Source: a virus | DNA length: 59,008 bases | Strand: one strand, 5' to 3' | IMG/VR virus record: IMGVR_UViG_3300045988_143098 | Translations under genes and position numbers: made by a program | The notes under the pieces: model-generated | Told to the model about the DNA's origin: nothing | Database searches by the model: none | Seen by the model: only the letters and a program-made list of their open reading frames with translations | Shown: positions 183 through 26,499 of the stretch, in pieces | Numbering within the stretch: position 1 is the first letter of the stretch | How the letters are laid out: each line of letters begins with the position of its first letter

Positions 183-205
183 TCGAAAATCGCATCCCCT
201 TTTAT
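183..205 (+). promoter_or_regulatory. Phage promoter-like motif copy A (TCGAAA-N11-TTTTAT)
   Basis: AGTCGAAAATCGCATCCCCTTTTATGAG, 35 nt upstream of ATG 240; same geometry as 9 other copies. Confidence 0.55.
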
Positions 206-239
206 GAGAGCGTATGAATCTTGTAAAAGGAGGTTGACT

Positions 240-434
240 ATGAAGCGGTATGCTTATATTGGCCCGGTGCTGGTGTTTGGTAAGATTACGAACCCGAAAT
301 GGAGCGGCGAAACTTTAGCCGTAAGTTTCGATAAGGCAAAGTCTAACTTGATGTACCAGTATAAAAAGCAAACTGGGCGAACAAAGAATGTAAAGATAGA
401 ATTTACAGGAAAAATATACGTTGTCGAAGAGTAA
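240..434 (+). CDS. hypothetical small protein (64 aa)
   Basis: ATG 240 preceded by AAAGGAGG; in frame within track ORF 168..434; hairpin terminator follows. Confidence 0.7.
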   Translation: MKRYAYIGPVLVFGKITNPKWSGETLAVSFDKAKSNLMYQYKKQTGRTKNVKIEFTGKIYVVEE

Positions 435-467
435 AGTCGAAGGAAATAATTTCTTCGACTTTTTTAT
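434..467 (+). terminator. intrinsic terminator
   Basis: AAGTCGAAG-loop-CTTCGACTT followed by T run. Confidence 0.8.
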
Positions 468-558
468 TTCCGCATGCATATTTTTGACTAAAAATGCATA
501 ACATATTACTACCGAGGGATGAAGTCTCCCCGGTAAATGAAAAGGAGGAAACGGTAAC

Positions 559-975
559 ATGAGTGAACGAGCTGAACTGAGCCGTAAGAACCCGTACTGG
601 ATTCCCCGTCATCGTTACTATGAGCTGAAGCACTTCTGCTTGCAGTTCCGTGACTACCAGCACAGGTGCCTTGAACTGGACGGAATGAGCAATTGCCATC
701 CTGCAGTTAGGGAAATTCAAAATGGTGTACAAAGCGCAGGCGAATTCACGGTTTCTCAGGCTATTGAGCGAGCCAGATTCGCCAAGTACATTGACATCAT
801 CGAATCTGCTGCTGAAGAAGCTGCTCCCGGTCTGTCAAAGTGGTTGTTAATCGGGGTGACGCAAAACGCCCATTACGACATCTTGAAACTTAGATTTGGG
901 ATTCCGTGCGGGAAAGATATGTACTACAACGTTTACCGTCGTTTCTTCTACATTCTGGATAAAAAACGCGAATAA
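559..975 (+). CDS. putative phage transcription regulator (sigma r4 / ArpU / RinA-like), weak call
   Basis: 138 aa, SD AAAGGAGG. The PYWIPRHRYYELKHFCLQFRDY and C-terminal YNVYRRFFYILD segments recall phage late-activator proteins (memory only). Confidence 0.4.
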   Translation: MSERAELSRKNPYWIPRHRYYELKHFCLQFRDYQHRCLELDGMSNCHPAVREIQNGVQSAGEFTVSQAIERARFAKYIDIIESAAEEAAPGLSKWLLIGVTQNAHYDILKLRFGIPCGKDMYYNVYRRFFYILDKKRE

Positions 976-985
976 CCAACTCTCT

Positions 986-1016
986 GAGAGATTTCGACTT
1001 GAAATCTCTCTTTTTC
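986..1016 (+). terminator. intrinsic terminator
   Basis: GAGAGATTT-CGACTTG-AAATCTCTC then TTTTT. Confidence 0.85.
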
Positions 1017-1081
1017 TTAGAATAACCGTACGCACTCTACCATTCTGTATGCTATTTTAGTAATGAGGAGGACACTTAAAA

Positions 1082-3055
1082 ATGGATTATATCGAGAAGC
1101 AAGCTATTGCGAAACGTATGACGTGGACTAATGAATTTGGTTGCAACGTTGCCAAGGCATACGACGAAATCAACTGCAACGACCCGGAGCATCATGACCT
1201 CAACCGAGAAAATGGGAACATCAACGGGAATACCCCAATGGGGGCAATGCTCCACATGGGCAGTGTTGCCGCAAAGGAGTATTACTTAGACGCAGACGTT
1301 GTTCCGCCGGAATACGCCCGTCTCCATCGGGAAGGCTACATTCATATTCATGACCTTGACTTCTACGGCTGGACAACGACCTGCACGCAGATCGACCTCC
1401 TGAAGCTGTTTCAAAATGGGTTTGACACGGGACATGGTCATCTTCGCGAACCAAAATCCATTGGCAGTTACGCTGCTCTCGCCGCCATTGCCATTCAGTC
1501 GAATCAGAATGACCAGCACGGTGGGCAGGCAATCGTAAATTTCGACTATGCGATGGCTGTGGGGGTTAAGCTAACTTACGAGAAGTATTACGATGAGGCT
1601 CATTCTATCCTCGAAAACCTTAGAAACGATAGCGGTGTAACGTTCAAACTCGCCTGCGGTCGTTCCAAATGGATACGGAACTACGCCACAGAGAAGACCA
1701 GGCGCGACACCTATCAGGCGATGGAGGGTTTTATCCACAATCTAAACACTATGCACAGTCGAGCCGGTGCTCAAGTCCCCTTCAGTTCTATCAACTACGG
1801 GATGGACACTTCTTGGGAAGGCAGACTTGCAATCGAGCAGCTTCTTCTTGCTACTGAGGCAGGATTGGGACATGGCGAAACTCCTATCTTCCCCATTCAG
1901 ATTTTCAGGGTTAAGGAGGGTATCAACTATAATCCCGGAGACCCGAACTACGACCTGTATCGACTTGCCATTCGAGTATCTGCAAAGCGATTGTTTCCGA
2001 ACTTCGCTTTCGTGGATGCTCCTTTTAATTTGCAGTATTATAAGCCCGGGCATCCTGAAACTGAAATTGCCTATATGGGATGCAGGACGCGGGTGATTGG
2101 GAACGTCTACGACCCTACTCGTGAGATTTGCAATCAGCGCGGGAATCTCTCATTCACAACAATCAATCTTCCTCGCTTAGCGCTTGACCTTCGAGATAGC
2201 GGTAACTCTGACATTGTCCCTGCGTTCCTGAACCGTGTCTCGGTAATGACGCATACTGTAATCCTCCAACTTATGGCAAGATTCAGAGTTCAAGCACAAC
2301 GCAAGGTTAAGAATTTTCCATTCTTGATGGGGCAAGGTGTGTGGCTCGATTCTGAAAAGCTAAATCCGGAAGATACCCTTGAAACGGTTCTAAAGCATGG
2401 CACACTAAGTGTTGGCTTCATTGGATTGGCTGAGGCGCTGAAATGCCTGATTGGGGTTCACCACGGTGAAAGTGAAGATGCACAAAAGTTGGGTTTGCGG
2501 ATTATTTCTATGATTCGTTCGATTTGCGATGCCGAATCGCAAAAATATGGAATGAACATCACCTGTCTCGCAACGCCAGCTGAGGGCCTCTCCGGGCGTT
2601 TCGTCAAAATGGATAGAGAAAAGTACGGGAACATTCCGGGCGTTACAGATAAAGAATACTATACAAACAGTTTTCACGTTCCCGTATATTACAAAATCGG
2701 AGCATATGATAAAATTAGAATAGAAGCTCCCTACCATGCGCTAACAAACGGCGGGCACATTACCTACATCGAAATGGATGGAGACCCTACAAAGAACCTT
2801 GACGCCTTTGAGATAGTGATTCGCTGTATGCATGATAACGGAATTGGCTACGGCAGTATTAACCATCCCGTAGACCGTGACCCAGTATGCGGATACACCG
2901 GAATCATCAACGACACATGCCCCAAATGCGGTCGCATTGAAGGCGATGTTCCGTTTGAGCGCATTCGTCGCATCACCGGTTACCTTGTTGGAAACATGAG
3001 CAAATGGAACGACGCAAAGCGTGCAGAGGAACGTGACCGAGTAAAGCATCTCTAA
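1082..3055 (+). CDS. nrdD: anaerobic ribonucleoside-triphosphate reductase (class III RNR)
   Basis: 657 aa; HREGYIHIHDLDF motif; C-terminal CPKCG zinc site and glycyl-radical motif RRITGYLVG. Confidence 0.95.
   Translation: MDYIEKQAIAKRMTWTNEFGCNVAKAYDEINCNDPEHHDLNRENGNINGNTPMGAMLHMGSVAAKEYYLDADVVPPEYARLHREGYIHIHDLDFYGWTTTCTQIDLLKLFQNGFDTGHGHLREPKSIGSYAALAAIAIQSNQNDQHGGQAIVNFDYAMAVGVKLTYEKYYDEAHSILENLRNDSGVTFKLACGRSKWIRNYATEKTRRDTYQAMEGFIHNLNTMHSRAGAQVPFSSINYGMDTSWEGRLAIEQLLLATEAGLGHGETPIFPIQIFRVKEGINYNPGDPNYDLYRLAIRVSAKRLFPNFAFVDAPFNLQYYKPGHPETEIAYMGCRTRVIGNVYDPTREICNQRGNLSFTTINLPRLALDLRDSGNSDIVPAFLNRVSVMTHTVILQLMARFRVQAQRKVKNFPFLMGQGVWLDSEKLNPEDTLETVLKHGTLSVGFIGLAEALKCLIGVHHGESEDAQKLGLRIISMIRSICDAESQKYGMNITCLATPAEGLSGRFVKMDREKYGNIPGVTDKEYYTNSFHVPVYYKIGAYDKIRIEAPYHALTNGGHITYIEMDGDPTKNLDAFEIVIRCMHDNGIGYGSINHPVDRDPVCGYTGIINDTCPKCGRIEGDVPFERIRRITGYLVGNMSKWNDAKRAEERDRVKHL
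1091..1131 (+). repeat. 41-bp exact direct repeat, copy 1 (inside nrdD codons 4-17)
   Basis: ATCGAGAAGCAAGCTATTGCGAAACGTATGACGTGGACTAA identical to 37735-37775. Confidence 0.95.
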
Positions 3056-3058
3056 TCG

Positions 3059-3081
3059 ACGAAAAAAGCAGTCACTATTAT
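3059..3081 (+). promoter_or_regulatory. Promoter-like motif copy J, degenerate (ACGAAA-N11-TATTAT)
   Basis: ACGAAAAAAGCAGTCACTATTATGG directly after the nrdD stop, 38 nt before ATG 3119. Confidence 0.4.
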
Positions 3082-3118
3082 GGAGAACCAATCTTATAGA
3101 TTGAAAGGAGAACTCTAT

Positions 3119-3502
3119 ATGAACGACCGACTAAAGGCTGAACTCGATGAGGAGTTTGACAAGCTGAATGCTCTTGGTCCCAGTGATGAAGGCTATAAGG
3201 AAGCAACTGAGCGGTTCACCAAGGTCTACTCCCTCTATCTGGAGGGAGAAAAGAATCAGGCAGAGGCCGAATTCAAGAAGCTACAAATTCAAAATGATGA
3301 GCTTATGAAAAAGGCTCAACTGTCTGAAACGAAAAAAGACAGATGGTGGAAAGTGGGGCTTGGCGTGGTTAGCTTAGTGCTGCCATTAGCCATTCAAACA
3401 GTGTGGTATAAGATGGGTATGAAGTTTGAAGAAACTGGCTCGTTTAGTTCTGCTTGTAGCAGGTCCATCTTCGGGAACCTGTTCAAGAATAAGACAAAGT
3501 GA
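3119..3502 (+). CDS. hypothetical coiled-coil protein with C-terminal TM helix
   Basis: ATG 3119 after GAAAGGAG; WWKVGLGVVSLVLPLAIQTVWY hydrophobic helix. Confidence 0.7.
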   Translation: MNDRLKAELDEEFDKLNALGPSDEGYKEATERFTKVYSLYLEGEKNQAEAEFKKLQIQNDELMKKAQLSETKKDRWWKVGLGVVSLVLPLAIQTVWYKMGMKFEETGSFSSACSRSIFGNLFKNKTK

Positions 3503-3552
3503 CTCAAAGGGAGGATGCCTGACTTTACAGGTACTCTTCCTTTTTCCATTTG

Positions 3553-3575
3553 TCGAAAAATGCAAGTTGTATAAT
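3553..3575 (+). promoter_or_regulatory. Promoter-like motif copy B (TCGAAA-N11-TATAAT) plus 5' hairpin 3578-3590
   Basis: TTGTCGAAAAATGCAAGTTGTATAATGAAGGGTATTACCCTATCAAATTTTAGGAGG, nearly identical to copy F. Confidence 0.65.
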
Positions 3576-3614
3576 GAAGGGTATTACCCTATCAAATTTT
3601 AGGAGGATGTTTTA

Positions 3615-3878
3615 ATGTTGCACGACTTACTTGAACTTGCTAAAGAAGTGACCATGGATCTCCGTCCTGAGGCTGGATACACCGACTACGAGTTGAACAT
3701 CGTTGGGGGTATCATAGTCGCCTGCGAGCTACCCGGTATGGTGATGGCGGCGATTTGTATCGGACTTTTCGACTTCGTTCGTAAGGTATTCCGGCATATC
3801 TCTGGAGGAAAGATGGCAAACGATGAGAGTTCAAATAACGTTGTTGACTTTCCCACCCCTAATGAAGATGATAAGTAA
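3615..3878 (+). CDS. small single-TM membrane protein, cassette family member
   Basis: 87 aa; AGGAGG SD; VGGIIVACELPGMVMAAICIGLF helix; shares promoter and terminator modules with 7137 and 14170 genes. Confidence 0.75.
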   Translation: MLHDLLELAKEVTMDLRPEAGYTDYELNIVGGIIVACELPGMVMAAICIGLFDFVRKVFRHISGGKMANDESSNNVVDFPTPNEDDK

Positions 3879-3885
3879 ACCCACG

Positions 3886-3921
3886 AGGAAAGATGCTGAT
3901 AACAAGGCATCTTTCTTTTTC
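3886..3921 (+). terminator. intrinsic terminator, conserved cassette type
   Basis: AGGAAAGATGC-TGATAACAAG-GCATCTTTCT then T run; same 10-nt loop at 7411 and 14492. Confidence 0.85.
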
Positions 3922-3926
3922 TAAAA

Positions 3927-3949
3927 TCGAAAAATTCAAGTTGTATAAT
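3927..3949 (+). promoter_or_regulatory. Promoter-like motif copy C (TCGAAA-N11-TATAAT) plus hairpin 3952-3963
   Basis: ATCGAAAAATTCAAGTTGTATAATGAAGGGACTACCCTATC. Confidence 0.6.
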
Positions 3950-3987
3950 GAAGGGACTACCCTATCAAAAATTGGAGGTAATTAAAA

Positions 3988-4107
3988 ATGGATATTGGTT
4001 CTTTTCTCATTGGCGTAGGTCTTACTATGGCAGCGACTTGTCGTGCTTTACTTGATAAATTTATCTGGTCTTTACTTAAATCTATCTGGATACAAAGAAA
4101 AAGATGA
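3988..4107 (+). CDS. 39-aa hydrophobic peptide (below ORF-track cutoff)
   Basis: ATG 3988 after TTGGAGG; MDIGSFLIGVGLTMAATCRALLDKFIWSLLKSIWIQRKR; own promoter copy C. Confidence 0.55.
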   Translation: MDIGSFLIGVGLTMAATCRALLDKFIWSLLKSIWIQRKR

Positions 4108-4196
4108 ATGAAGTGAACGACAAGTTGACCACACTCGAAAATACGCTAATCAAACAGGAACAATCGGAGAAAGACTAAATTAGATAGACATCCCTT

Positions 4197-4234
4197 AACA
4201 AACGACACCGTTTACAAGGTGTCATTTGTTTTCA
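4197..4234 (+). terminator. intrinsic terminator
   Basis: AACAAACGACACC-loop-GGTGTCATTTGTT then TTC. Confidence 0.7.
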
Positions 4235-4250
4235 AAAAGTCGACAAAAAG

Positions 4251-4273
4251 TCGACAAAAACATGTTGTATTAT
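4251..4273 (+). promoter_or_regulatory. Promoter-like motif copy D (TCGACA-N11-TATTAT), upstream block duplicated at 4240-4245
   Basis: AAAGTCGACAAAAAGTCGACAAAAACATGTTGTATTATGGG. Confidence 0.5.
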
Positions 4274-4304
4274 GGGAACCTAATAAATTTAAGGAGGTAT
4301 TTCC

Positions 4305-4580
4305 ATGAGAAATACGGTTTTCTTGTACGGGTTCACAAACATGCATGAGATGCACGGATGCTACTTCATCTGCTGCGAAGAGCTCAGTATTCAGAGAATC
4401 AAGAGCATAGCGAAGCTCATCGTCACGGAATATCCTGACGTGAAGCGTGTCTATGCGATTGATAATCGGAGAGGGCTCCGCAGAGAGTTCTTGGAAGCTG
4501 TCACATCTAAGGTGTTTGTGGACCGATTCGTGTTCGAGGACACCTGTAAGACGGAAGGGTTGCTTGTCTTAGAAATCTAA
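4305..4580 (+). CDS. hypothetical protein (91 aa)
   Basis: AAGGAGG SD; no recognisable motifs. Confidence 0.7.
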   Translation: MRNTVFLYGFTNMHEMHGCYFICCEELSIQRIKSIAKLIVTEYPDVKRVYAIDNRRGLRREFLEAVTSKVFVDRFVFEDTCKTEGLLVLEI

Positions 4581-4647
4581 GTTCCAAAGCGGAGGAGGTT
4601 GACAAAGCCTCTTCTGTTTTCATTGATATTTGAAAGGAGACTCCAAA

Positions 4648-5007
4648 ATGCGATACCATTTTGAGCGCCCGGTTAAAACAACTTCCCAGCATGGCGAGAC
4701 ATACCTGTGCGACCATCCTGTTTACAGTAGATGCACATTGTATAAGCTCGGAAATCGTGGACTTGCAGTGATTCAGCAGCGATACATTCGAGCTAACAAG
4801 GCTACGATTTGGCGAGAAATCTACCCTTGGCTCACAGATTCTATTTACTATGCACCGGGGTTCAATGAGTTCTTCAACGAGCGTGCTGGCGAAGCCGTTG
4901 ATGGTATCTATCCCACAGTAACTGTGCGCCAATTGATGTGGGCGCTCAAAATGAAGCCGCTTGAAAAGGAAAGATGGGAAACAGTGTTCGACCGGCGTGA
5001 TATTTGA
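4648..5007 (+). CDS. hypothetical protein (119 aa)
   Basis: ATG 4648 after AAAGGAGA; in frame within track ORF 4630..5007. Confidence 0.75.
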   Translation: MRYHFERPVKTTSQHGETYLCDHPVYSRCTLYKLGNRGLAVIQQRYIRANKATIWREIYPWLTDSIYYAPGFNEFFNERAGEAVDGIYPTVTVRQLMWALKMKPLEKERWETVFDRRDI

Positions 5008-5020
5008 GGAGGCAGTATAT

Positions 5021-5410
5021 ATGAAATTTTTCGATTATAATCCTGATAATACCGCATGGTACATCTACATTGACTACGAAAAACGTACTCCCTACTACAT
5101 TGACAACAGCGGTGTAAACATTATTGTTTGTCGAGATTATAAGCATGTACTGGATTCATTTCTGGTCGCATCTCATGCTACTGAGGGGACATTTGTTGCT
5201 GATATTCCTGTGGACACTTTGGGCGTCAGAGTTGTATCCTGTTTGCGCGATTTGGAGCAGCTTCGCCCATATTTGGTTCGCATTCACATCGACCCCGTAG
5301 GCGTTGTTGAAAAGCGCAAGTCAATCAAAAACATCATTGATATTTTGGAAAGTTATAACTACAAAGTCGAAGTTTACAATTCCTATAATGGAGAACCCAT
5401 TACAATTTAA
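5021..5410 (+). CDS. hypothetical protein (129 aa)
   Basis: ATG 5021 after GAGGAGG; in frame within track ORF 4961..5410. Confidence 0.75.
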   Translation: MKFFDYNPDNTAWYIYIDYEKRTPYYIDNSGVNIIVCRDYKHVLDSFLVASHATEGTFVADIPVDTLGVRVVSCLRDLEQLRPYLVRIHIDPVGVVEKRKSIKNIIDILESYNYKVEVYNSYNGEPITI

Positions 5411-5422
5411 GGAGGCGTAATC

Positions 5423-5779
5423 ATGCGTATCTACGTTATCCCCGATGAGAACGAAACGAAGTTTCAGTCGTTCAAACGGAAGGCGAAGGAAAAGTTCGAC
5501 AATGGAATTGATGCGATTAAGCAGCACAAGGAGGAAATCATTGAGATTGCTCCGTTAGCTTTGGGCGCACTGGCTGTGACGGCAAAAGTCATTACAAAGT
5601 CCGTGCATCTGAAGCAGGAGCGTGATTTGAAAGACCGCTTTGTCTGGGACAATCATCTTGGGCATTATTGGAAAACCAAACGGAAACTTTCCAACAACGA
5701 ATGGCTGGAAGTGGAGCGTCGTAAGAAATTGGGCGAGGACATCGGAACCATTTTGCGTTCTATGAAACTGCTGAGGTAA
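5423..5779 (+). CDS. hypothetical membrane-associated protein (118 aa)
   Basis: AAGGAGG SD; IIEIAPLALGALAVTAKVI hydrophobic segment. Confidence 0.75.
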   Translation: MRIYVIPDENETKFQSFKRKAKEKFDNGIDAIKQHKEEIIEIAPLALGALAVTAKVITKSVHLKQERDLKDRFVWDNHLGHYWKTKRKLSNNEWLEVERRKKLGEDIGTILRSMKLLR

Positions 5780-5785
5780 CCCCAC

Positions 5786-5822
5786 ACGGAAGGTCGTTTA
5801 GTACAGCGACTTTTCCGTTTCT
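5786..5822 (+). terminator. probable intrinsic terminator
   Basis: CGGAAGGTCG-loop-CGACTTTTCCG (G-U pairs, one bulge) then TTT. Confidence 0.55.
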
Positions 5823-5831
5823 CCTAAAAAG

Positions 5832-5854
5832 TCGAAAATTGCAACTCTTATTAT
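5832..5854 (+). promoter_or_regulatory. Promoter-like motif copy E (TCGAAA-N11-TATTAT) plus hairpin 5858-5869
   Basis: AGTCGAAAATTGCAACTCTTATTATGAAAGAGGTTGCTCTTGAC. Confidence 0.6.
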
Positions 5855-5895
5855 GAAAGAGGTTGCTCTTGACAAAAATTTTAGGAGGAATGACT

Positions 5896-6024
5896 ATGTT
5901 GCTTTTGGATTTGTTTTTCTACGGTTTCTTGTTCTGTGTGTTTTGTTTGGTAATTAAAAGAGCCGTACAACTAACGTTCAGATTCATCAATAGCCTATTT
6001 GATAAGATTAATAACATGCTGTAA
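5896..6024 (+). CDS. 42-aa hydrophobic peptide (below ORF-track cutoff)
   Basis: ATG 5896 after TAGGAGG; MLLLDLFFYGFLFCVFCLVIKRAV...; own promoter and terminator. Confidence 0.6.
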   Translation: MLLLDLFFYGFLFCVFCLVIKRAVQLTFRFINSLFDKINNML

Positions 6025-6033
6025 TCTCACGAC

Positions 6034-6078
6034 AAAGGAATTGGCTGAAATTGCAATCAGCCTTTCCTTTTGCTTTTT
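6034..6078 (+). terminator. intrinsic terminator
   Basis: AAAGGAATTGGCTGA-loop-TCAGCCTTTCCTTT then T-rich run. Confidence 0.8.
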
Positions 6079-6102
6079 CAAAATAAAAGGAGGGCTCATT
6101 CT

Positions 6103-6315
6103 ATGGAATTTGGAAAGAAGCTCGGCTTAATCGGTGGCATGATTGGTGGAAACACTAAGAATCCGTCGATTCTGAAAGAGATTCTGGGTTCACCGGATGA
6201 CTTCAAAATCGAGGCATCAATCGAAGATGGCGAACTTGTCATTCGCGTTCGACGGAAAACAGTCGCCGTCACTCGGAGAAAAAAGAAAGTCGTCAGGCGC
6301 TTACCCGGTGCTTGA
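6103..6315 (+). CDS. hypothetical protein with basic C-terminus (70 aa)
   Basis: ATG 6103 after AAAGGAGGG; RRKTVAVTRRKKKVVRR tail. Confidence 0.65.
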   Translation: MEFGKKLGLIGGMIGGNTKNPSILKEILGSPDDFKIEASIEDGELVIRVRRKTVAVTRRKKKVVRRLPGA

Positions 6316-6341
6316 TTACTACACAACAAGGAGGTATTTCT

Positions 6342-7064
6342 ATGGATATTCTGGGGTTTCTGAAGAAAAATCGGGCGTTCATCGGAACTTGCGGAGGCAT
6401 TCTTGGCACAATCGGAACTGGAATTCTTGCCGCAAGAGCTGCTTTGCGTGCCGACAAAGAACTCAACGGCAACACGTTGTCCGATGGAAAGGAAAAACTG
6501 AGAGTCATCGCAAAACATGCAAGTCTTCCGATGCTGTCGTGTGTATTTACTTCCTTTTGTATTCTTGATGCGCATAACACGCATGTTAAATTCGAGAATA
6601 GTCTCATTTCAAGTGGCGTTGCGTTGTGCGGACTTCTTCAGCAAACACAGCATGAGAAACGCCTTAATGCACCAAGCGAGCTTCTTGAAGAAGGTGATGC
6701 CACTTCTCAGTATGCTCTATTCCGCGAAATAAACACCGGATTGATATTTAATGCATCGGTTGATGACGTACTCGCCGCATGTAGAGACTTGAATCGCGGC
6801 ATCTACATCAATGGTTCGTCTACGCTTGGCGAGTTCTTTGAGTTCCTGAACATTGATTACATTTCTAAGGATGCGAAGAAAGCTGAGCCTGATTGGGGAT
6901 GGACGCCGGGGTACTGCGAAGAGTATTACATTATGCCATACGTCGAATTCGAGTACAAAAAAGTAGAGTTAGCTGACGGACGTGTCGTCATTGATATTTG
7001 TCCGGTAATCCCGCCGATACCACCAGATATGCTGGATGCTTACGACTCTTTCGGCGGTGCGTAA
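6342..7064 (+). CDS. 2-TM hairpin membrane protein, paralogue family member 1
   Basis: ATG 6342 after AAGGAGG. Two N-terminal hydrophobic helices plus C-terminal TLGEFFEFLNI...WGW module, shared with 10220, 13155 and 14736 genes. Confidence 0.8.
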   Translation: MDILGFLKKNRAFIGTCGGILGTIGTGILAARAALRADKELNGNTLSDGKEKLRVIAKHASLPMLSCVFTSFCILDAHNTHVKFENSLISSGVALCGLLQQTQHEKRLNAPSELLEEGDATSQYALFREINTGLIFNASVDDVLAACRDLNRGIYINGSSTLGEFFEFLNIDYISKDAKKAEPDWGWTPGYCEEYYIMPYVEFEYKKVELADGRVVIDICPVIPPIPPDMLDAYDSFGGA

Positions 7065-7073
7065 TTAGCATTT

Positions 7074-7096
7074 GTCGAAAATTGCAAGTTGTATAA
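7074..7096 (+). promoter_or_regulatory. Promoter-like motif copy F (TCGAAA-N11-TATAAT) plus hairpin 7099-7111
   Basis: Nearly identical to copy B over about 65 nt up to the start codon. Confidence 0.65.
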
Positions 7097-7136
7097 TGAA
7101 GGGTATTACCCTATCAAATTTTAGGAGGATGTTGGT

Positions 7137-7392
7137 ATGTTAATTAAACAACTCATTGACCAGTCTGCTGCGGCTGCTAAGGAGCACTCGGAGATGTTCT
7201 TTCATGGGCGTTACACCAAATTCATAATGCTTTCGACTATTGCTGCTATCGGGCCCGGAACCCTGCTGCAAGTTGGTATCTTGAAAGTTCTTCAGATGGT
7301 TGACAGCTTGAGAGGGTGATCCGGAGAACTTAACAGTTTTGAGACTGGTTAGAATTGAAAATTCGTTGACTTCCGACTCAATTGATGAGTAA
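7137..7392 (+). pseudogene. small membrane protein of the cassette family, reading frame broken at 7317 (60 aa as written; +1 frame continues to 7392)
   Basis: TGA at 7317-7319. The +1 frame stays open to TAA 7390-7392, which sits in the same TAAACCCACG context as the stop of the 3615 gene, just before the conserved terminator. Confidence 0.5.
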
Positions 7393-7400
7393 ACCCACGG

Positions 7401-7434
7401 GGGAGGATGCTGATAACAAGGCATCTTCCCTTTT
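7401..7434 (+). terminator. intrinsic terminator, conserved cassette type
   Basis: GGGAGGATGC-TGATAACAAG-GCATCTTCCC then TTTT. Confidence 0.85.
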
Positions 7435-7463
7435 GTATTATTTAGAAGAAGAGGTGCCGTGCT

Positions 7464-7790
7464 TTGGAAAAGTATCAAACAAACCATATTTCAAATGATT
7501 TACATTGTCTTTGGAACGGCAACGTTAGAACCATTCTTAAACTACTTAGGATTAGCCGCGCAGATTTTGCTCGAATGCTTGGGGTAAGCGATAATACGGT
7601 AGGTATGATGTTCTACAGATGCGGCCATACGTTAACGCATATGCAATTTCATGCTACGATGTGGGTTTTGTTCCTCTCCATAATGGAAGCGGAACAGGGG
7701 TGTCAGAAGCGTTTTGATGCTAACACAGCTTTAGCGAAAGAGCTCTGGAAAGAGATTCACTCTTTTTATATGGAGCATGGGCTGAATTAA
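7464..7790 (+). CDS. HTH DNA-binding protein (XRE/Cro-like)
   Basis: 108 aa, TTG start uncertain; ISRADFARMLGVSDNTVGMMF helix-turn-helix. Confidence 0.6.
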   Translation: MEKYQTNHISNDLHCLWNGNVRTILKLLRISRADFARMLGVSDNTVGMMFYRCGHTLTHMQFHATMWVLFLSIMEAEQGCQKRFDANTALAKELWKEIHSFYMEHGLN

Positions 7791-7813
7791 TCGAAAATTG
7801 CAGCTCTTATTAT
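7791..7813 (+). promoter_or_regulatory. Promoter-like motif copy G (TCGAAA-N11-TATTAT)
   Basis: TCGAAAATTGCAGCTCTTATTATGAAGGAGG starts right after stop codon 7788-7790. Confidence 0.55.
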
Positions 7814-7829
7814 GAAGGAGGTGATTAAA

Positions 7830-14081: not shown

Positions 14082-14105
14082 TATTTTCCATATTTTCCAT
14101 CAAAG

Positions 14106-14128
14106 TCGAAAAAAACAAACCGTATTAT
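14106..14128 (+). promoter_or_regulatory. Promoter-like motif copy H (TCGAAA-N11-TATTAT) plus hairpin 14131-14142
   Basis: AGTCGAAAAAAACAAACCGTATTATGAAGGGGAAACCCTATCAATAAATTTTAGGAGG. Confidence 0.6.
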
Positions 14129-14169
14129 GAAGGGGAAACCCTATCAATAAATTTTAGGAGGATTCTACA

Positions 14170-17645: not shown

Positions 17646-20600
17646 ATGTTGGACTTTCTGCTGATTTCAACTCGTTCTCAAAAGCGCGGAACGATTGAAA
17701 TCGTTCCGAAGTTCATCATCAAGAAAAGCTCTGACCTGATGATTCGTGGCGGCGATTTCTACGCTATCTGGGATGAAGAGAAAAAGCTCTGGTCTACGGA
17801 TGAGCAAGACGTTGTTCGTCTCGTCGATGCACAACTTGACGAGTTTGCAAAAAGCAATTGCAGTCATCTTGAAGGTGATGTGCGTGTGCTGCATATGTGG
17901 GATGCTGCATCTGGCATGATTGATATTTGGCATAAATATTGTCAGCGTCAGATGCGGGACTCCTATCATATGCTGGACGAACGATTGATATTTGCAAATA
18001 CTGAGACGAAAAAAACTGATTACGCAAGCAAGAAGCTCCCCTACCCTCTGGAATTTGGGACTACATCTGCTTGGGAACAGTTGATGAGCACACTGTATCA
18101 GCCAGCTGAACGTCACAAAATCGAGTGGGCAATCGGTTCAATCGTCAGTGGCGACTCTCGGAAACTGCAGAAGTTCATGGTTCTCTATGGCGCAGCTGGT
18201 ACGGGTAAGTCAACAGTGCTAAACATCATTCAGCAGCTTTTTGATGGATATTTGTCAGTATTCGATGCCAAAGCACTTGGTTCTTCATCGAACGCTTTCG
18301 CGCTTGAAGCGTTCAAGTCAAACCCTTTGGTTGCCATTCAGCATGACGGTGACCTTTCCCGAATCGAGGATAATACTCGGTTAAACTCGCTGGTATCTCA
18401 TGAAAAGATGACAGTCAATGAAAAGTTCAAATCCACATATACGAACGACTTCAAGGCTTTTCTCTTCATGGGTACTAATAAGCCGGTAAAGATTACGGAT
18501 GCGAAGTCCGGTTTGATTCGCCGACTCATCGACGTAACTCCGTCAGGTAATAAACTACCCCGCGACGAGTATCAGACAATCATGGCTCAAATTCCGTTTG
18601 AACTTGGGTCAATTGCCGCTCGTTGCAAAGAAATCTACGAGAAGAATCCGGGAGCTTATGATGACTACATCCCCATTAACATGATGGGTGCGTCCAACGA
18701 TTTCTATAACTTTGTTATGGATTCGTGGTTGATATTTAAGAAGGAGGATGAAACGACCCTTAAGACGGCTTGGGAAATGTATAAAGTATACTGCGAAGAT
18801 GCGAAAGTGCTTTATCCGGAGAATAAGCGCGTATTTAAGGAGGAACTGAAAAACTACTTCAAGGAGTATTACGAGCGCATCGTCATGACCGACGGTTCTC
18901 GGATTCGGAACTACTACAAGGGATTCAAGTACGATAAATTCGAGGAGGCGGAAACTCAAAATGTCGTCGACATTGAAAAACCAGCGGTCACTTCCATACC
19001 AGATTGGTTATCGCTTAGGCAGCAGCACTCAATCCTTGATGATATTTGCGCTGACTGCAAGGCGCAGTATGCTTCGGAAGATGAGAAACCTCTTCTAAAA
19101 TGGGATAGCGTTGCCACGACTTTGAAAGACATCGACAGCAAGAAACTGCACTACGTTCTGTTCGGAAAAGAGTTTCTTAATCTTATCATCATTGACTTTG
19201 ATATTCGGGACGCATCTGGGAAAAAGTCGTTTGAAGAAAACGCTAAAGCAGCGAGCAAATGGCCGAAGACGTATGCTGAAACGAGTAAAAGCGGTGCAGG
19301 GATTCACCTGCACTATTTTTATTCCGGTGATGTCACGAATCTCAGTCGAATTTATGATGACCAGATTGAGGTCAAAGTCATGGTCGGTAACAGTTCCCTG
19401 CGCCGCATGTTGACAGTATGCAATGATATTCCTATTGCGACGATTAGTTCCGGTCTCCCGCTCAAGGAGGAAAAGGATGTGGTAGACAAGAAAACTATCT
19501 CAAATGAAAAGAATCTCAGAATCCTCTTGAAAAGGACGATGAATAAAGAATTTCTCCCGGGAACGAAGCCAAGTGTCGATTTCATTGTTAAGATTTTGGA
19601 TGATGCGTATGCGAGTGGGATGCAGTATAATGTTTCAGATATGTATACTGCCGTCCTTGCGTTTGCATCCAGAAGCACTAATCATGCGGACTATTGTCTA
19701 AAGCAGATTGGGAAGATGAAATTCCAATCGAAGGACGATGATGAAACGACCGAACTTGCTAATGCAAAACCGCCTGATGAGGTGATTGATGAGCAATTGA
19801 TATTTTTCGATGTCGAGGTCTTCCCGAACCTCGTACTTGTCTGCTGGAAAGTTCAGGGTGAAGGGAAAAGTGTCGTAAGATGGTTTAACCCAACACCGAC
19901 TGATATTTCTAAACTTGTCGAGCATCGGTTGGTCGGGTTCAACAACCGAAACTATGACAACCACATCATTTATGCAATCATGATGGGATATACTCCAGAA
20001 CAGATTTACAACCTCTCACAGCGAATCATCAACGGAAAGACCTCTGCGGAACGCCGGAATGCTCTGTTTGGAAGTGCTTACGACCTTTCTTACACTGATA
20101 TTTACGATTTCGCTTCTGCCGGAAATAAAAAAAGTCTTAAGAAGTTGGAAATCGAAATGGGAATCCATCATCAGGAATTGGGATTGCCGTGGGACGAACC
20201 CGTGGACAAGGAAAAATGGGAGATGGTTGGCAACTATTGCGAAAATGACGTAATTGCTACCGAGACTGCTTTCGAGCATCTTTCTGCCGACTGGATAGCT
20301 CGCGTCATTCTATCGGATTTGGCGGGCATGAAGGTCAACGATACTACGAACAGTTTAACAACAAAAATTATATTTTCTGGTGACCGTTCTCCGCAACATG
20401 AGTTTCAGTACCGGAATCTTGCAGAGCCAGTCATGAACCTTGACGATGACATGGAGCAATTTCTGAAGAATGCAGCACCGGTCATGATGTCTGAACCTCA
20501 CGGCGAGGCCAATAGTTTGCTCCCCTATTTTGATGGATATTCTTTTGAGCAAGGGGTATCTACATTCATGGGTGAAAAGGTTAGTGAAGGTGGATGGGCT

Positions 20601-23583: not shown

Positions 23584-24456
23584 GTGATGCGACTCGGCTA
23601 TTATCCTAAAGCGATGGGTCAAAAAATCGGTTTCGAGAATTTTGCAAGATATGAATTGGAACTGGTTAAAAAGTATGAAATCATTTCTGAAGTCCAATTC
23701 GAGGATTACATCCACCGGGTCGATTTAATCAAAATCGGCTATGATAGTTATGCACAAGCCTGTAAGGATGAACTTCTGGATAGGCTATTAAACTATAAGC
23801 CGCTTACCCCCATAACCGGTAATGATTGCGAATGGATTTATCGTGACCCGCTGGCTCGAAAAGGAAAATCCATTCCGCTATTTTACAATCGTCGTTGTCC
23901 GTCTCTTGTCAAAATTTGCGGGCGCGTCTACGACCTTGACAACGGCGGGTTTGTGTCGTATGATGGTGGTTCATCATGGATAAGAACAATTGACCATTGC
24001 CCGACAGTTAATTTCCCCTACTTTCCTAAAAATGTAGTACGTCGAGTGTATCTCGAACCTAAATGGGTCAACGGGGACTGCATAAAGGATATTTCAGAGT
24101 ATCCCGAACGCATCCTCAAGCTCAGAAAGCTGATGGAGAAAGCACAAGATGTTCTTCCCCTCACTGTCTTGAAGAATATGATGTCTGACTACAGAAAGCA
24201 ATACTCGACGAATGACATGACCATATTCCTTGAACTTCGTAATCCGGGTACCGGTATACCGAGAGTGCAACCTGTCCGTGTGCTTCTCAATAAGGATGAG
24301 GTTGAGTTAGACGATTCATTTCTCTTCTACATTTGGGGCGGCACAACCCACATGATAGGTATTAAAGATTTCTCGACTTATGGCATCGAATGGCGATGCT
24401 GGCTGTTTGTTCCGCCTGAAGAACGCTTGAAAAATACACCGTGGGAGGAATGCTGA
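23584..24456 (+). CDS. hypothetical protein (290 aa)
   Basis: GAGGAGG SD; start GTG 23584 or ATG 23587. Confidence 0.75.
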   Translation: MMRLGYYPKAMGQKIGFENFARYELELVKKYEIISEVQFEDYIHRVDLIKIGYDSYAQACKDELLDRLLNYKPLTPITGNDCEWIYRDPLARKGKSIPLFYNRRCPSLVKICGRVYDLDNGGFVSYDGGSSWIRTIDHCPTVNFPYFPKNVVRRVYLEPKWVNGDCIKDISEYPERILKLRKLMEKAQDVLPLTVLKNMMSDYRKQYSTNDMTIFLELRNPGTGIPRVQPVRVLLNKDEVELDDSFLFYIWGGTTHMIGIKDFSTYGIEWRCWLFVPPEERLKNTPWEEC

Positions 24457-25448: not shown

Positions 25449-25477
25449 TTGAAAAAGAGCCCCCTTCGTGGTATACT
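25449..25477 (+). promoter_or_regulatory. canonical sigma-A/sigma-70 type promoter with extended -10
   Basis: TTGAAA - 17 nt - TATACT with TG at -15/-14 (cgTGgTATACT), 40 nt upstream of ATG 25517. Confidence 0.75.
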
Positions 25478-25516
25478 GACAGTCGGTTTCAATGGGCACG
25501 AGAGGAGGAGTTTTCA

Positions 25517-25957
25517 ATGGACGGTAAAGATTTTTTCGATGACTACGGCAAGTATTATCCTGACGAAGATGCACCCGTTTATGACCCGAACGACATCTGC
25601 GATTTTCGGGAGGAGCAGGAGGAATACGAATACGACACAACGGACGTTTGCGGAAGACCTGTTCATGTATATGTTGATAGGTTTGGGGAGCATCATGATA
25701 GTGTCGATTTTGATTCAGAAGCACATAAGAGGTTGTATAGAAAGACCGGGAAACAATTTTGTGGTCTTTGCAAATCCGGTGCCGAAATGAAATATATACA
25801 GGTCAATCCTAAGCGAAAGTCAAAATTCTACGATTATTGGGAATGCCCTGAATGTCATTTCGCAGTTTTGGCAGAAGATGTCGTAAATGGTGATTACAAT
25901 TTCCCCACTCCTGAGTCTGTTAAAGACCCTTGGAACGAATTTTTTAGAATTTTTTAA
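25517..25957 (+). CDS. acidic protein with C-terminal CxxC...CxxC zinc ribbon
   Basis: 146 aa; GAGGAGG SD; CGLCKSG...CPECH. Confidence 0.7.
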   Translation: MDGKDFFDDYGKYYPDEDAPVYDPNDICDFREEQEEYEYDTTDVCGRPVHVYVDRFGEHHDSVDFDSEAHKRLYRKTGKQFCGLCKSGAEMKYIQVNPKRKSKFYDYWECPECHFAVLAEDVVNGDYNFPTPESVKDPWNEFFRIF

Positions 25958-25991
25958 CAGATATTTATTAACACTTAGTGGAGGTAACAGT

Positions 25992-26420
25992 ATGAAAAAG
26001 ATACTCTCAGTCATCTTGGCTATCGGTTTAGCATCTGCTCCCGTTGTTGCTGAAAGCCCCACGGTCGATTTGAGTGCCATGACACTCGATGAACTGGTAG
26101 AGCTGCGAGACCGCGTGAACTTTGAGATTGACTCTCGAATTTGTGTGAGCGATTCGACTATCGGTCGAGGGATTTATACTGTCGGTGTATCCATTGCCCC
26201 CGGTGTATACGAATTCACGGCAACTGAAGTGGAAATGGGTGCGGGCAGCGAGTGTCGTATCTACGTCTATGGGGCTGACGATAAAGAGAATCCTAAGATA
26301 GGGATTTATGACATTCCAGTCGGTTCTCCATCCGTTATCGAACTGATTGATGGCGATACACTTGAAATAAGAGGCGGCAGTGGATTTTTGAAGAGAGCCG
26401 ATAAAAGTTGGATGCCTTAA
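25992..26420 (+). CDS. secreted protein with signal peptide (moron-like)
   Basis: MKKILSVILAIGLASAPVVAES signal-like N-terminus; strong terminator follows. Confidence 0.75.
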   Translation: MKKILSVILAIGLASAPVVAESPTVDLSAMTLDELVELRDRVNFEIDSRICVSDSTIGRGIYTVGVSIAPGVYEFTATEVEMGAGSECRIYVYGADDKENPKIGIYDIPVGSPSVIELIDGDTLEIRGGSGFLKRADKSWMP

Positions 26421-26436
26421 CGATAGCATATCATCA

Positions 26437-26473
26437 AGAGTAGCTGTAAAATACAGCTACTCTTCTTTTTTTC
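26437..26473 (+). terminator. strong intrinsic terminator
   Basis: GAGTAGCTGT-AAAA-(T)ACAGCTACTC then TTCTTTTTTT. Confidence 0.9.
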
Positions 26474-26476
26474 AAG

Positions 26477-26499
26477 TCGAAAATCGCAAGTCCTCTTAT
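26477..26499 (+). promoter_or_regulatory. Promoter-like motif copy I (TCGAAA-N11-TCTTAT) in front of the nuclease/RNA-polymerase operon
   Basis: AGTCGAAAATCGCAAGTCCTCTTATGAGGAG. Confidence 0.55.

Follow-up and report, generated by a model that had tools for sequence, protein, structure and literature searches.

The window, that is, the whole 59,008-nt stretch of viral DNA analysed here (IMG/VR record IMGVR_UViG_3300045988_143098), is the ~59 kb genome of a temperate phage with a Faecalibacterium host. A tyrosine integrase gene (57592..58764, + strand) marks the temperate lifestyle. The last 84 bp (58925..59008) repeat positions 1-84 exactly and include the 3' end of a minus-strand tRNA gene; this repeat probably represents the att core. 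A Faecalibacterium sp. CAG:74 scaffold contains two 85-bp matches to it, at 99-100% identity. No close isolate relative was found, megablast of positions 1-20000 against GenBank phages returning only an 83-bp match. Neither the window nor the IMG/VR relatives closest to it yielded any tRNAs.

An operon on the + strand begins with genes for a VRR-Nuc-like endonuclease (26562..26888) and a PD-(D/E)XK / DUF2800 exonuclease (26788..27456), both kept in all relatives, and continues with a 929-aa protein (27458..30247). The evidence supports this protein being a single-chain two-barrel RNA polymerase of the QDE-1/YonO type with a helix-turn-helix (HTH) domain at both ends. It matches phrog_4291 (1055 bits), and its GADFDGD sequence at residues 521-527, the DxDGD metal-binding loop, shows no variation among 33 metagenomic and 9 isolate-phage sequences. 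The Pfam RdRP match is weak (E = 0.0045, below cutoff) and a sequence search against the PDB returned HTH matches only, so that fold comparison was needed. Foldseek placed QDE-1 first (7y7s, E = 1.1e-4, probability 1.00), then RDR2, followed by Rpb1 and beta' chains, the large subunits of multisubunit polymerases; the structural model itself is only moderately good (pLDDT 73, pTM 0.57), with TM-scores to QDE-1 of about 0.28. The N-terminal HTH (about residues 88-143) matches Sigma70_r4_2 (Pfam, above threshold) and HTH_3, and the C-terminal one (about 886-928) HTH_23 and HTH_38. Koert et al. (2021; bioRxiv 10.1101/842583), who reported an HHpred probability of 95.7%, flagged the family only as a putative enzyme. 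Most GenBank records annotate the homologs as "helix-turn-helix DNA-binding domain protein". Packaging of the polymerase in the virion found no support, the Lactococcus 1706 homolog not being annotated as structural. An 82-aa protein (phrog_4303; 30272..30520, + strand) is encoded directly 3' of the polymerase gene in every relative examined, and one may speculate that it is a polymerase cofactor.

The window also carries a repeated motif, TCGAAA-N11-TATwAT, which an earlier note had reported in ten copies and which proved real. Exact TCGAAA-N11-TATWAT occurs 6 times against 0.01 expected, and 11 times against 0.74 expected with at most one mismatch; all 11 copies are on the + (coding) strand and none on the opposite strand. 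With a 31-nt weight matrix (-26 to +5, counting from the G after the second hexamer as +1), the 11 sites score 29.7-42.6 bits (19.1-39.7 in leave-one-out), the next best site on either strand scores 8.5, which leaves a gap of >20 bits to the background, and the highest score over 30 random Markov-1 genomes is 17.9. Conservation spans about -26 to +5 as one contiguous ~31-bp block, aaGTCGAAAAwtGCA-N5-TATwAT-GAAGG, and four copies have a further 35-nt leader in common. Nine of the ten copies lie where they had been placed; the one listed at 7074-7096 is really at 7075-7097, and an eleventh, at 5367-5389 (TCGAAG...TATAAT), had been overlooked. The details of the motif given in the note also held: the spacer is 11 nt in all 11 copies, a central GCA/ACA (described as (T/C)GCA in most) is found in 11/11, and G(A/G) follows the second hexamer in 11/11. 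Start codons, two of which were mended by eye after automatic calling, follow at roughly +17 to +63, each after a Shine-Dalgarno sequence (SD), as reported. The statement that a hairpin terminator usually stands just before a copy applies to 6/11, which have a hairpin and T-run directly upstream.

All copies are given here as 31-nt blocks with the predicted +1. Copy 1 (180..210; G206; 34.2 bits) has the hexamer TTTTAT. Copy 2 (3056..3086; G3082; 29.7 bits), an ACGAAA variant, lies directly 3' of the nrdD stop codon and has the initial sequence GGAGAACC. Copy 3 (3550..3580; G3576; 41.6 bits) follows a hairpin at 3516-3533, and copy 4 (3924..3954; G3950; 38.9 bits) a conserved terminator repeat at 3869-3923. 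Copy 5 (4248..4278; G4274; 33.2 bits) is a TCGACA variant with a second TCGACA duplicated upstream at 4240-4245. The overlooked copy 6 (5364..5394; G5390; 34.5 bits) lies within the 3' end of ORF 4961-5410 and upstream of ORF 5423-5779. Copy 7 (5829..5859; G5855; 42.6 bits) is downstream of a hairpin at 5788-5815; copy 8 (7072..7102; G7098) scores 42.1 bits; and copy 9 (7788..7818; G7814) has its SD, AAGGAGGTGA, from +2 and a TTG start codon at 7830. Copy 10 (14103..14133; G14129; 39.6 bits), downstream of a hairpin at 14054-14083, stands at the head of a unit running through a terminator (14480-14513) into replication genes. Small 5'-UTR stem-loops after the copies at 3553, 3927 and 14106 are individually nonsignificant (z about 0 to -0.5).

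Copy 11 (26474..26504; G26500; hexamer TCTTAT; 40.0 bits) heads the nuclease, exonuclease and polymerase operon and then structural genes, in agreement with the earlier claim that one copy precedes the polymerase operon. A strong intrinsic terminator (26436..26472, + strand; -18.4 kcal/mol, z = -7.8) lies just upstream of it, and a leader hairpin followed by a U-run (26500..26545, + strand; -16.4 kcal/mol, z = -3.7) starts at the predicted +1. This hairpin is possibly an attenuator or a 5' stabiliser of the late operon. A site matching copy 11 in position and type is present in FP_oengus and in relatives L019, L020 and L021, and a similar leader in FP_oengus and L021.

The motif recurs in related phages. 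All nine other isolate phage genomes examined that bear a polymerase homolog (9/9) carry a version of their own, in the same register and confined to the coding strand (FP_oengus, 13 sites; Lactococcus 1706, 11; D_HF4_2, 4; BitterVaud1, 7; Camille, 8; Mudcat, 7; Kenosha, 8; Moozy, 6; Qui, 29), and with the window included 104/104 sites in 10 genomes are on the coding strand. Three metagenomic relatives each have one matching site, before the polymerase operon. The window's exact pattern is not enriched in FP_oengus (9 matches against 6.2 expected); the orthologous FP_oengus motif surfaced only through de novo repeat finding. Consensus variants are phage-specific: the upstream box in relatives is CGCG/CGCA plus an A/T-rich run, and the hexamer is CTTTAT in 10/13 FP_oengus sites, with TAnnnT almost or entirely absent from the 13, and TATAAT/TATTAT in most actinophage copies. 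When a relative's version served as the query of a DNA-pattern scan, at least 120 viral contigs were retrieved; 107/120 encode protein markers of the phage family, and 59 encode the polymerase. This ties the motif to the phage family that carries the polymerase. The isolates examined infect Firmicutes and Actinobacteria, and their hosts vary widely in G+C and phylum.

The earlier note had recognised that the geometry does not fit sigma-A and that the sites look like promoters. Both points stand: the box is only 11 nt from the hexamer, a sigma-70 scan of positions 1-15000 calls none of the copies, and positions -42 to -27, where a -35 element would lie 16-18 nt upstream, are unconserved in all nine phages compared. 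The position of transcription starts bears on how the sites are read. In FP_oengus, an Rfam-confirmed tRNA (47.9 bits), flanked by an upstream hairpin and a downstream T-run, begins at +3. Among IMG/VR contigs, 18 tRNA or tRNA-like genes stand behind the motif, with 13 distinct promoter variants, and tRNA position 1 is at +2 or +3 in 17/18 and at +6 in the other. Of 68 sites called automatically, 13 have an SD core that begins no later than +7 (~11 robust by eye: copy 9 of the window and about 10 sites in relatives, at +1 to +7), and no start codon comes closer than +13. A start 5-9 nt past the hexamer, as had been proposed, would truncate the SD of copy 9, and it conflicts with tRNA genes and SDs that already begin 1-7 nt after the hexamer. 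From this placement we infer that transcription most likely starts at the purine directly after the hexamer, a G in the window. The +1 to +8 sequence itself is kept across phyla (GAGAACC, GAGACCCC).

These observations weigh against the sites being -10-only promoters of host sigma-A, aided by a factor at the upstream box and starting ~7 nt past the hexamer, a reading that we regard as unlikely. Such promoters would resemble the middle promoters of T4, in which a MotA box centred near -30 substitutes for the -35 element (sigma appropriation). In T4 (MotA box, sigma-70 -10, AsiA), too, the box lies ~11-13 bp upstream of TAnnnT, there is no -35, and the 11-nt distance in the window is MotA-box-like. 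TATAAT/TATTAT is found in 9/11 window copies as well as in most actinophage copies, and genes that look early and the operon of the polymerase itself lie downstream of the sites, so that host transcription would solve the bootstrapping problem. However, the MotA box (TGCTTtA) and the window box (GTCGAAAA) are unrelated in sequence, the hexamer degenerates to CTTTAT in relatives, and the downstream elements put the start directly after it. Orthologous CTTTAT, TTTTAT and TCTTAT lack A at hexamer position 2, which together with the placement of tRNAs and SDs (from +1 to +7) argues against the second hexamer being a sigma-A -10 element, as the note had implicitly taken it to be. The conserved +1 to +8 sequence and the lack of an extended -10 TG also count against this reading. 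No small early protein or activator is kept across the family; the Pfam scan, which bears on MotA or AsiA homologs, covered 30 of ~79 window ORFs.

A second possibility is dual use, in which host sigma-A starts weakly a few nucleotides downstream and the phage polymerase then takes over at +1. The polymerase gene itself stands behind one of these sites and a strong terminator, which raises the bootstrapping problem. Because the phage is temperate, some host-polymerase route to the enzyme must exist on induction, and dual use would supply the first polymerase molecules; it would also explain the near-perfect TATAAT in phages with G+C-rich genomes and hosts. Promoters with only a -10 element are common in Actinobacteria. 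The nine window hexamers that fit TAnnnT (A2, T6) could be used weakly by host sigma-A; the exceptions are copy 1 and copy 11, and it is the polymerase-operon copy that fits a -10 worst, with TCTTAT in the window and TTTTAT in FP_oengus, L020 and L021. FP_oengus, with its near lack of TAnnnT, also speaks against dual use, which we consider improbable. A sigma-70 consensus scan of positions 1-15000 was barely enriched (33 against 23.9 expected) and matched no motif copy, and no convincing host sigma-A promoter was seen by eye in positions 1-600 or near 26.4 kb.

The sites might instead not be promoters but oriented protein-binding sites (repressor stoperators), RNA-processing sites or other regulatory sites. 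The stoperators of cluster A mycobacteriophages are asymmetric, intergenic and in one orientation. The sites share these properties, and the window phage is temperate; stoperators have also been described in cluster CA (PMC10986025). Against this, relatives that are lytic or have neither a repressor nor an integrase gene show this architecture too, Camille being listed as lytic (PMC7302621). Moreover, the sites lie between a terminator and a ribosome-binding site or tRNA, and they contain a conserved purine start behind an A/T-rich block. The stoperator reading was rejected because of the lytic-listed relative and the sites that abut tRNA 5' ends, and we judge any nonpromoter function very improbable.

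The 11 sites are instead probably phage-specific promoters recognised by the phage's own 929-aa polymerase. Of the two alternatives offered earlier, a host -10 with an adjacent factor and a phage-specific factor, the second is favoured, with the polymerase as the specific reader. It is the only conserved nonstructural protein of the family in which an HTH DNA-binding domain was detected, the others kept in all relatives being replication/recombination enzymes or of unknown function. The other two proteins that had been named as candidates are not conserved with the motif: among 8 other family genomes, only FP_oengus encodes a homolog of the regulator 559-975 and none encodes one of the protein 7464-7790, and neither protein has a Pfam HTH match. 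The N-terminal HTH helix reads APSTVDSYLN only in the window and an 81%-identical relative (xESxxRSLLN in the others), and GTCG at -24 to -21 is likewise confined to these two (CGCG/CGCA in the others). Helix and upstream box thus appear to co-vary, in what amounts to one evolutionary event only.

Under this proposal, the promoter would be one contiguous ~30-bp block in which four elements follow one another: an upstream box (GTCGAAAA in the window) at -24 to -17; a central (G/A)CA at -14 to -12; the A/T-rich TATwAT at -6 to -1, probably a melting region and not a sigma -10 element; and a purine-rich initial transcribed sequence from G at +1 (GAAGG, GGAGAACC). The two HTH domains of the polymerase, one of them sigma-region-4-like, may dock on the duplex upstream elements, so that the enzyme would need no separate sigma factor for promoter recognition. 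The individual promoters, mostly just after an intrinsic terminator, would each drive a short and probably highly expressed gene, and read-through would carry transcription into promoterless genes behind terminators, among them the whole replication module (14.5-26.4 kb). Copy 11 would drive the nuclease, exonuclease and polymerase genes and on into the structural genes. The result would be positive autoregulation and late expression.

YonO of the Bacillus prophage SPbeta, also a single-chain two-barrel RNA polymerase, is the only enzyme of this class for which DNA-dependent RNA synthesis has been shown (Forrest et al. 2017; PMC5467207). Both enzymes are phage-encoded single polypeptides of the beta'/beta-like, QDE-1-like class with a DxDGD loop, and YonO transcribes phage genes, the role that we propose for the 929-aa polymerase. 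In contrast, Pfam detects no HTH domain in YonO (839 aa), which serves one late operon from one mapped start, whereas the window has 11 candidate promoters, mostly before early-looking genes. The YonO start was mapped to B. subtilis 168 position 2225998, and its promoter was left undefined (PMC5467207). Between yonN and yonK, SPbeta has two copies of TCGnnTAATnnTCATTTAT followed directly by GA(A/G)GGT. They resemble the window family's TCG...TTTAT sites followed by G(G/A)AGG, but with the TCG box 4 nt nearer the hexamer, and one copy falls inside the amplicon of the published P_YonO primer-extension primers. For the family of the window polymerase itself, no promoter and no transcriptomic or biochemical work on any member was found in the literature searched. 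A Rhodococcus WC1 transcriptome paper concerns an unrelated cluster, and cluster EL is treated without mention of any such repeat in a paper on Microbacterium phages.

Promoters of T7, T3 and SP6 are contiguous elements of ~23-30 bp that end at the start, with an A/T-rich TATA-like segment before +1 and initiation at G followed by a purine-rich initial sequence; each phage has its own variant, which changes along with the polymerase, and the genomes are built from promoter-gene-terminator units with partial read-through. The proposed window promoters have the same layout of a block up to the start, an A/T-rich segment and a G start, and would likewise form promoter-gene-terminator units with partial read-through; as in T7, the block ends at the predicted +1, occurs only on the coding strand and upstream of genes, and both accompanies its cognate polymerase and diverges with it. 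Since T7 polymerase has a Pol-I-like right-hand fold and the 929-aa enzyme a two-barrel fold, any resemblance would be convergent, and recognition would differ as well (fused HTH domains here, a specificity loop and an AT-rich recognition loop in T7). Within the same superfamily, P23-45 gp96/gp64 have their own motif, AT-rich or GC-rich, upstream of mapped starts (PMC10770324), and the crAss-like phi14:2 gp66 and the AR9/phiKZ nonvirion polymerases each have a promoter motif of their own, that of AR9 being a uracil-containing template-strand motif; all these motifs differ from the one in the window. Unlike the 929-aa polymerase, these enzymes are virion-packaged, multisubunit or without HTH fusions, and their starts have been mapped, whereas those of the window family are predicted from sequence.

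We see roughly even chances that a very large family of tailed phages has self-contained transcription, with a single-chain two-barrel polymerase, bearing sigma-region-4-like HTH domains at both ends, that alone recognises a duplex promoter of ~30 bp and initiates at the purine next to a TATAAT-like melting block; counts for the family stand at 250 or more isolate genomes (Actinobacteria and Firmicutes) and 8000 or more metagenomic proteins. If this is true, the consensus would be the first one available for the YonO class and might even apply to YonO. The candidate consensus, with its predicted start and contacts, bears on how such enzymes find promoters, an issue since YonO (2017), and it would open promoter recognition to direct tests in a minimal, ancestral-like two-barrel enzyme, many family members being cultivable (SEA-PHAGES actinophages, Lactococcus 1706 and FP_oengus). 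The system might also be developed into a new orthogonal tool for gene expression in Gram-positive bacteria. Annotation would gain as well, since many gut and soil phages could then have their transcription units, small RNAs and tRNA-like genes predicted. For the phages themselves, the finding suggests a programme mostly independent of host sigma factors.

We searched the window for TCGAAA-N11-TATWAT and found six exact matches (0.01 expected) and 11 with at most one mismatch (0.74 expected), every one on the plus strand. The ten copies of the earlier note were all recovered, the one listed at 7074-7096 lying in fact at 7075-7097, and an overlooked copy at 5367-5389 (TCGAAG...TATAAT) brings the total to 11. 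Aligning the flanks of the 11 copies showed that conservation exceeds the two hexamers, as aaGTCGAAAAwtGCA-N5-TATwAT-GAAGG. A 31-nt weight matrix gives these sites 29.7-42.6 bits (19.1-39.7 bits in leave-one-out scoring), against 8.5 bits for the runner-up position on either strand and a maximum of 17.9 bits across 30 random Markov-1 genomes; because the scores stand clear of background, the window holds exactly 11 sites. The second hexamer (positions -6 to -1, with +1 the base directly after it; "the hexamer" below) is followed by G and then A or G at 11/11 sites, as had been claimed, and the claimed misfit to sigma-A spacing also holds: no -35-like hexamer lies 16-18 nt away at any of the 11 sites, and a sigma-70 scan called none of them. 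A hairpin with a T-run lies immediately 5′ of six of the 11 copies.

Four of the 11 copies have a common leader, GAAGGGtAtTACCCTATCAAAtTTTAGGAGG (3576-3610, 3950-3985, 7098-7132, and 14129-14165). In these leaders, a GGG...CCC stem at +4 to +14 keeps its pairing with varying loops (UAUUA, ACUA, and GAAA), and is followed by UAUCAA and then the SD; single-sequence folding of the four leaders gave no significance. Several short transcription units in the window are closed by near-identical intrinsic terminator families with 78-97% identity (3869-3923, 7383-7437, and 14464-14518; also 7962-8019 and 8938-8995).

The same geometry was sought in nine other isolate phages that carry a homolog of the 929-aa protein (27458-30247, plus strand), a predicted single-chain two-barrel RNA polymerase, by de novo repeat finding and weight-matrix refinement. 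A repeat confined to the coding strand and in the same register was present in 9/9 genomes. With a slash before +1, the consensuses are gaCGCGAAAAa..Ca...t.cTTTAT/Gga.g in FP_oengus (13 sites), cacAtgTTTTACAta..CTATAGT/AGAaagaag in Lactococcus 1706 (11 sites), cGCAAAAa..AC....cctATAAT/GAGAAC in D_HF4_2 (four sites), ttCGCGA..aaAaCATcGCttAt.AT/GAa in BitterVaud1 (seven sites), TCGCg.aAaaaACAgg.c.TATgaT/GAgAacc in Camille (eight sites), CGCg.aAAttACA.GggcTATAAT/g in Mudcat (seven sites), ctCGCa.a.atTACAcg.ccTATAaT/GAGAcccc in Kenosha (eight sites), and TCGCA.G.ttTaC.tGc..TaTaat/GAGACCCC in Moozy (six sites); in Qui, the 29 individual sites read TTCGCAGAAATCACAAGGCATATAAT/GAGAACCC or nearly so. 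Including the window, all 104 of 104 sites lie on the coding strand. Of these phages, FP_oengus infects F. prausnitzii, Mudcat and Qui are Arthrobacter phages, and Kenosha is a Gordonia phage. All 10 share C-22 and G/A-21, which usually form part of CGCG or CGCA at -24 to -21. An A/T-rich stretch, the pair C-13 and A-12, and five unconserved bases come next, followed by a TATAAT-like hexamer at -6 to -1 and a purine at +1; no conservation was found 5′ of -26 across the compared phages. From these common features, the TCGAAA box and the central (T/C)GCA read, by alignment, as local forms, in the window, of two elements found throughout the family. Wherever its position could be verified (in the window, FP_oengus, Camille, and Mudcat), the final copy heads an operon of nuclease, exonuclease, and polymerase that continues into the structural genes, and three metagenomic relatives (L019, L020, and L021) have one matching site each in the same place before the polymerase operon.

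The earlier note implicitly took the hexamer for a -10 element with transcription starting 5-9 nt downstream, a reading disfavored by three independent kinds of downstream element: tRNA genes, SD sequences, and the identity of the hexamer itself. In FP_oengus, a copy ending in ...CCCTTAT at 2933 is followed by a tRNA that begins at about 2935-2936 (Rfam, 47.9 bits, full length), with a hairpin 5′ of the motif and a T-run 3′ of the tRNA. Among the IMG/VR matches listed, 18 tRNA or tRNA-like genes lie immediately behind the motif, with 13 distinct 26-nt promoter sequences. Seventeen of the 18 have tRNA position 1 at +2 or +3, and the other, a tRNA-Val, has it at +6; with a start 5-9 nt past the hexamer, all these tRNAs would lose their 5′ ends. 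At copy 7791 of the window, GAAGGAGGTGATTAAATTG follows the hexamer and supplies a perfect SD that begins at +2, ahead of a TTG start codon at 7830; FP_oengus has two similar sites, Lactococcus 1706 seven, and BitterVaud1 one. Across the 68 sites with a scripted SD and start codon (two calls set right by eye), start codons are never nearer than +13 and SDs never earlier than +1. A is missing from the second hexamer position in 13/13 FP_oengus sites, 10 of which read CTTTAT, and also in the late-operon copies (TCTTAT or TTTTAT) of the window, L019, FP_oengus, L020, and L021. Furthermore, +1 to +8 is conserved (GAAGG and GGAGAACC in the window; GAGAACC and GAGACCCC in actinophages), and the leader hairpin of the late-operon copies begins at +1. 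Combining these positions, we place the likely start at the purine after the hexamer, or within one or two nt of it. No sigma-70-family holoenzyme fits such a geometry, which is that of T7-type phage promoters.

The tRNA-like genes behind promoter copies are found at 2935-3006 in FP_oengus (L001) and at 17 IMG/VR loci (e.g., L026 5316-5388, L039 4210-4281, and L042 11231-11303). ARAGORN calls the gene "tRNA-???" and gives it an anticodon of only two bases, which differ by contig (tc, ga, ca, aa, or ta); the anticodon loop is therefore shortened. The gene opens with bases (GGAGGAGA, GGAAGGAGA) that match the initial transcribed consensus of the promoter.

The association of the motif with the polymerase family was approached with the DNA pattern alone. 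An IMG/VR scan with its gut-clade version, CGCGAAAAANNCANNNNNNTTTATG, returned at least 120 stretches, many of them multi-copy, where our own rough estimate of chance expectation is fewer than ten. Among the matches listed, 107 of the 120 stretches carry at least one family protein marker (polymerase in 59, VRR-Nuc in 68, exonuclease in 66). A phage-specific factor had been proposed as one of two alternatives, with the polymerase and the products of 559-975 and 7464-7790 as candidates. A phage-specific reader is favored, with the polymerase as the most likely one. Conservation of the other two does not follow that of the motif, 559-975 having a homolog only in FP_oengus among the eight other family genomes compared and 7464-7790 in none of the eight, and neither has a Pfam HTH match. 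The nonstructural set shared by every relative comprises primase-polymerase, ssDNA-binding protein, helicase, two nucleases, DUF6353 proteins, the polymerase, and an 82-aa protein encoded just 3′ of it (phrog_4303, no assigned function), and among them an HTH DNA-binding domain was detected only in the polymerase. DUF6353 (phrog_2152) has four paralogs in the window (6312-7064, 10220-10987, 13047-14081, and 14736-15473), is kept in most relatives examined, and is multi-copy in FP_oengus too.

A phrog_4291 match spans the whole 929-aa protein (1055 bits), and its Pfam RdRP match is below threshold. Above threshold are an N-terminal HTH at about 88-143 (Sigma70_r4_2, HTH_3) and a C-terminal HTH at about 886-928 (HTH_23, HTH_38). 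Its GADFDGD is invariant in 33 metagenomic and nine isolate-phage homologs, and the best hit of a fold search with the AlphaFold2 model (pLDDT 73) is QDE-1 (E = 1e-4), ahead of plant RDR2 and, next in order, multisubunit polymerase large subunits. The same polymerase reading was obtained with HHpred by Koert et al. (bioRxiv 10.1101/842583), who described the protein as a signature of a supercluster of actinophages and Lactococcus/Faecalibacterium phages and described no promoter. The recognition helix of the N-terminal HTH is xES(S/T)xRSLLN in 31/33 gut homologs, with close variants (ES[S/T][VI]R) in eight isolate-phage homologs; APSTVDSYLN occurs only in the window and an 81%-identical relative, and only these two have GTCG at -24 to -21, with CGCG or CGCA elsewhere. 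This co-variation of helix and box would favor direct promoter recognition by the polymerase, as weak evidence because it represents a single evolutionary event.

In the proposed mechanism, the HTH domains of the two-barrel polymerase would read the duplex upstream part of the promoter, and the enzyme would melt the A/T-rich -6 to -1 block and initiate with GTP at +1. Terminator read-through would reach the promoterless genes, i.e., 559-975, nrdD, 7464-7790, 8043-14081, and the replication block at 14.5-26.4 kb. The late operon begins at copy 26477, 3′ of a strong terminator (-18.4 kcal/mol), and the leader of this copy (26500-26545) forms a hairpin (-16.4 kcal/mol, z = -3.7) with a U-run after it; there are comparable leaders in FP_oengus (L001 27708-27750) and L021 (about 9104-9145); we speculate that it is an attenuator delaying late expression. 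The polymerase gene lies behind its own promoter type, and the first polymerase could be supplied in three ways. The host might use the TATwAT copies weakly. The polymerase might be delivered with the virion, for which no support was found, the Lactococcus 1706 homolog not being annotated as structural. Its gene might also be transcribed from an unrecognized host promoter, since induction of a temperate phage would seem to require one; no convincing one was found by a sigma-70 scan of 1-15000 or by eye in 1-600 and near 26.4 kb.

The window is a complete temperate Faecalibacterium siphophage genome of ~58.9 kb, because its ends (1-84 and 58925-59008) are an identical 84-bp repeat that includes a tRNA gene 3′ end (minus strand), a tyrosine integrase (57592-58764) adjoins this repeat, and the repeat occurs twice in Faecalibacterium sp. 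CAG:74 scaffold FR899901 (85-bp match, 99-100% identity), where one copy runs on 73 nt into the phage right end (157 nt in total). Repeat and integrase suggest attP/attB sites, a temperate phage, and Faecalibacterium as the host; comparison with GenBank phages found no close isolate relative. All real genes are on the plus strand, with small genes and nrdD at 0-14 kb, replication genes (a 1337-aa primase-polymerase, ssDNA-binding protein, and helicase) at 14.5-26.4 kb, then the operon of VRR-Nuc nuclease, exonuclease, and 929-aa protein, and then terminase, portal, capsid, and tail genes. The 5′ end of nrdD and the 3′ terminus of ORF 37395-37775, immediately 5′ of the portal gene, share a 44-nt repeat (98% identical; 1091-1134 and 37735-37778), perhaps a scar left by recombination when the nrdD module was acquired. 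The N-terminal part of the 23584-24456 product matches Pfam Tad3 (Thoeris inhibitor, E = 2e-8), a domain also carried by relatives (with WDGH in L020), making it a candidate anti-defense gene. Two adjoining ORFs at 8448-9847 are made of degenerate 18-nt periodic repeats (GTGTTCGGTAATGC-like), which would fit left-handed beta-helix (hexapeptide-repeat) proteins; their sole Pfam match is a weak LbH hit. G+C is ~45% in the window vs. ~54% in Faecalibacterium flanking DNA (L015 and L016), and cluster EL phages have 51-56% against 69% in their host (PMC7302621); phages of the polymerase-bearing lineage may characteristically have a G+C content well below that of their hosts.

The closest known enzyme is YonO of SPbeta, which has no Pfam HTH, whereas the 929-aa protein has one at both ends. 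Its authors left the YonO promoter undefined and placed an unannotated noncoding RNA in the gene-free yonN-yonK stretch (PMC5467207). At the head of this stretch (L017 7153-8835, minus strand, ~1.7 kb) are two copies of CAGTT..TCGnnTAATnnTCATTTAT/GA(A/G)GGT, 157 nt apart. Of these, the second falls within the amplicon (60331-60573) of the published P_YonO primer-extension primers, 108 nt from the reverse primer 5′ end, and position 60438 of the SPbeta c2 record (NC_001884, minus strand) is the G after TCATTTAT. This copy is a candidate YonO promoter and could be related to the window motif, a lead rather than a result. In function the window sites resemble T7 and SP6 promoters, by convergence, their likeness to T4 middle promoters is limited to the box-to-hexamer distance, and the motifs of P23-45, crAss-like, and AR9/phiKZ polymerases are unrelated. 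The literature searched gave no description of promoters for the HTH-fused family, and the Microbacterium phage paper that includes Camille reports intergenic repeats in other clusters and none for cluster EL (PMC7302621). Homologs of the polymerase occur in 250 GenBank phage records, and a metagenomic protein collection includes at least 7999 among the best 8000 scored candidates. A phage polymerase with cognate promoters is a known kind of system; here it is proposed for an uncharacterized and very widespread family of HTH-fused two-barrel polymerases.
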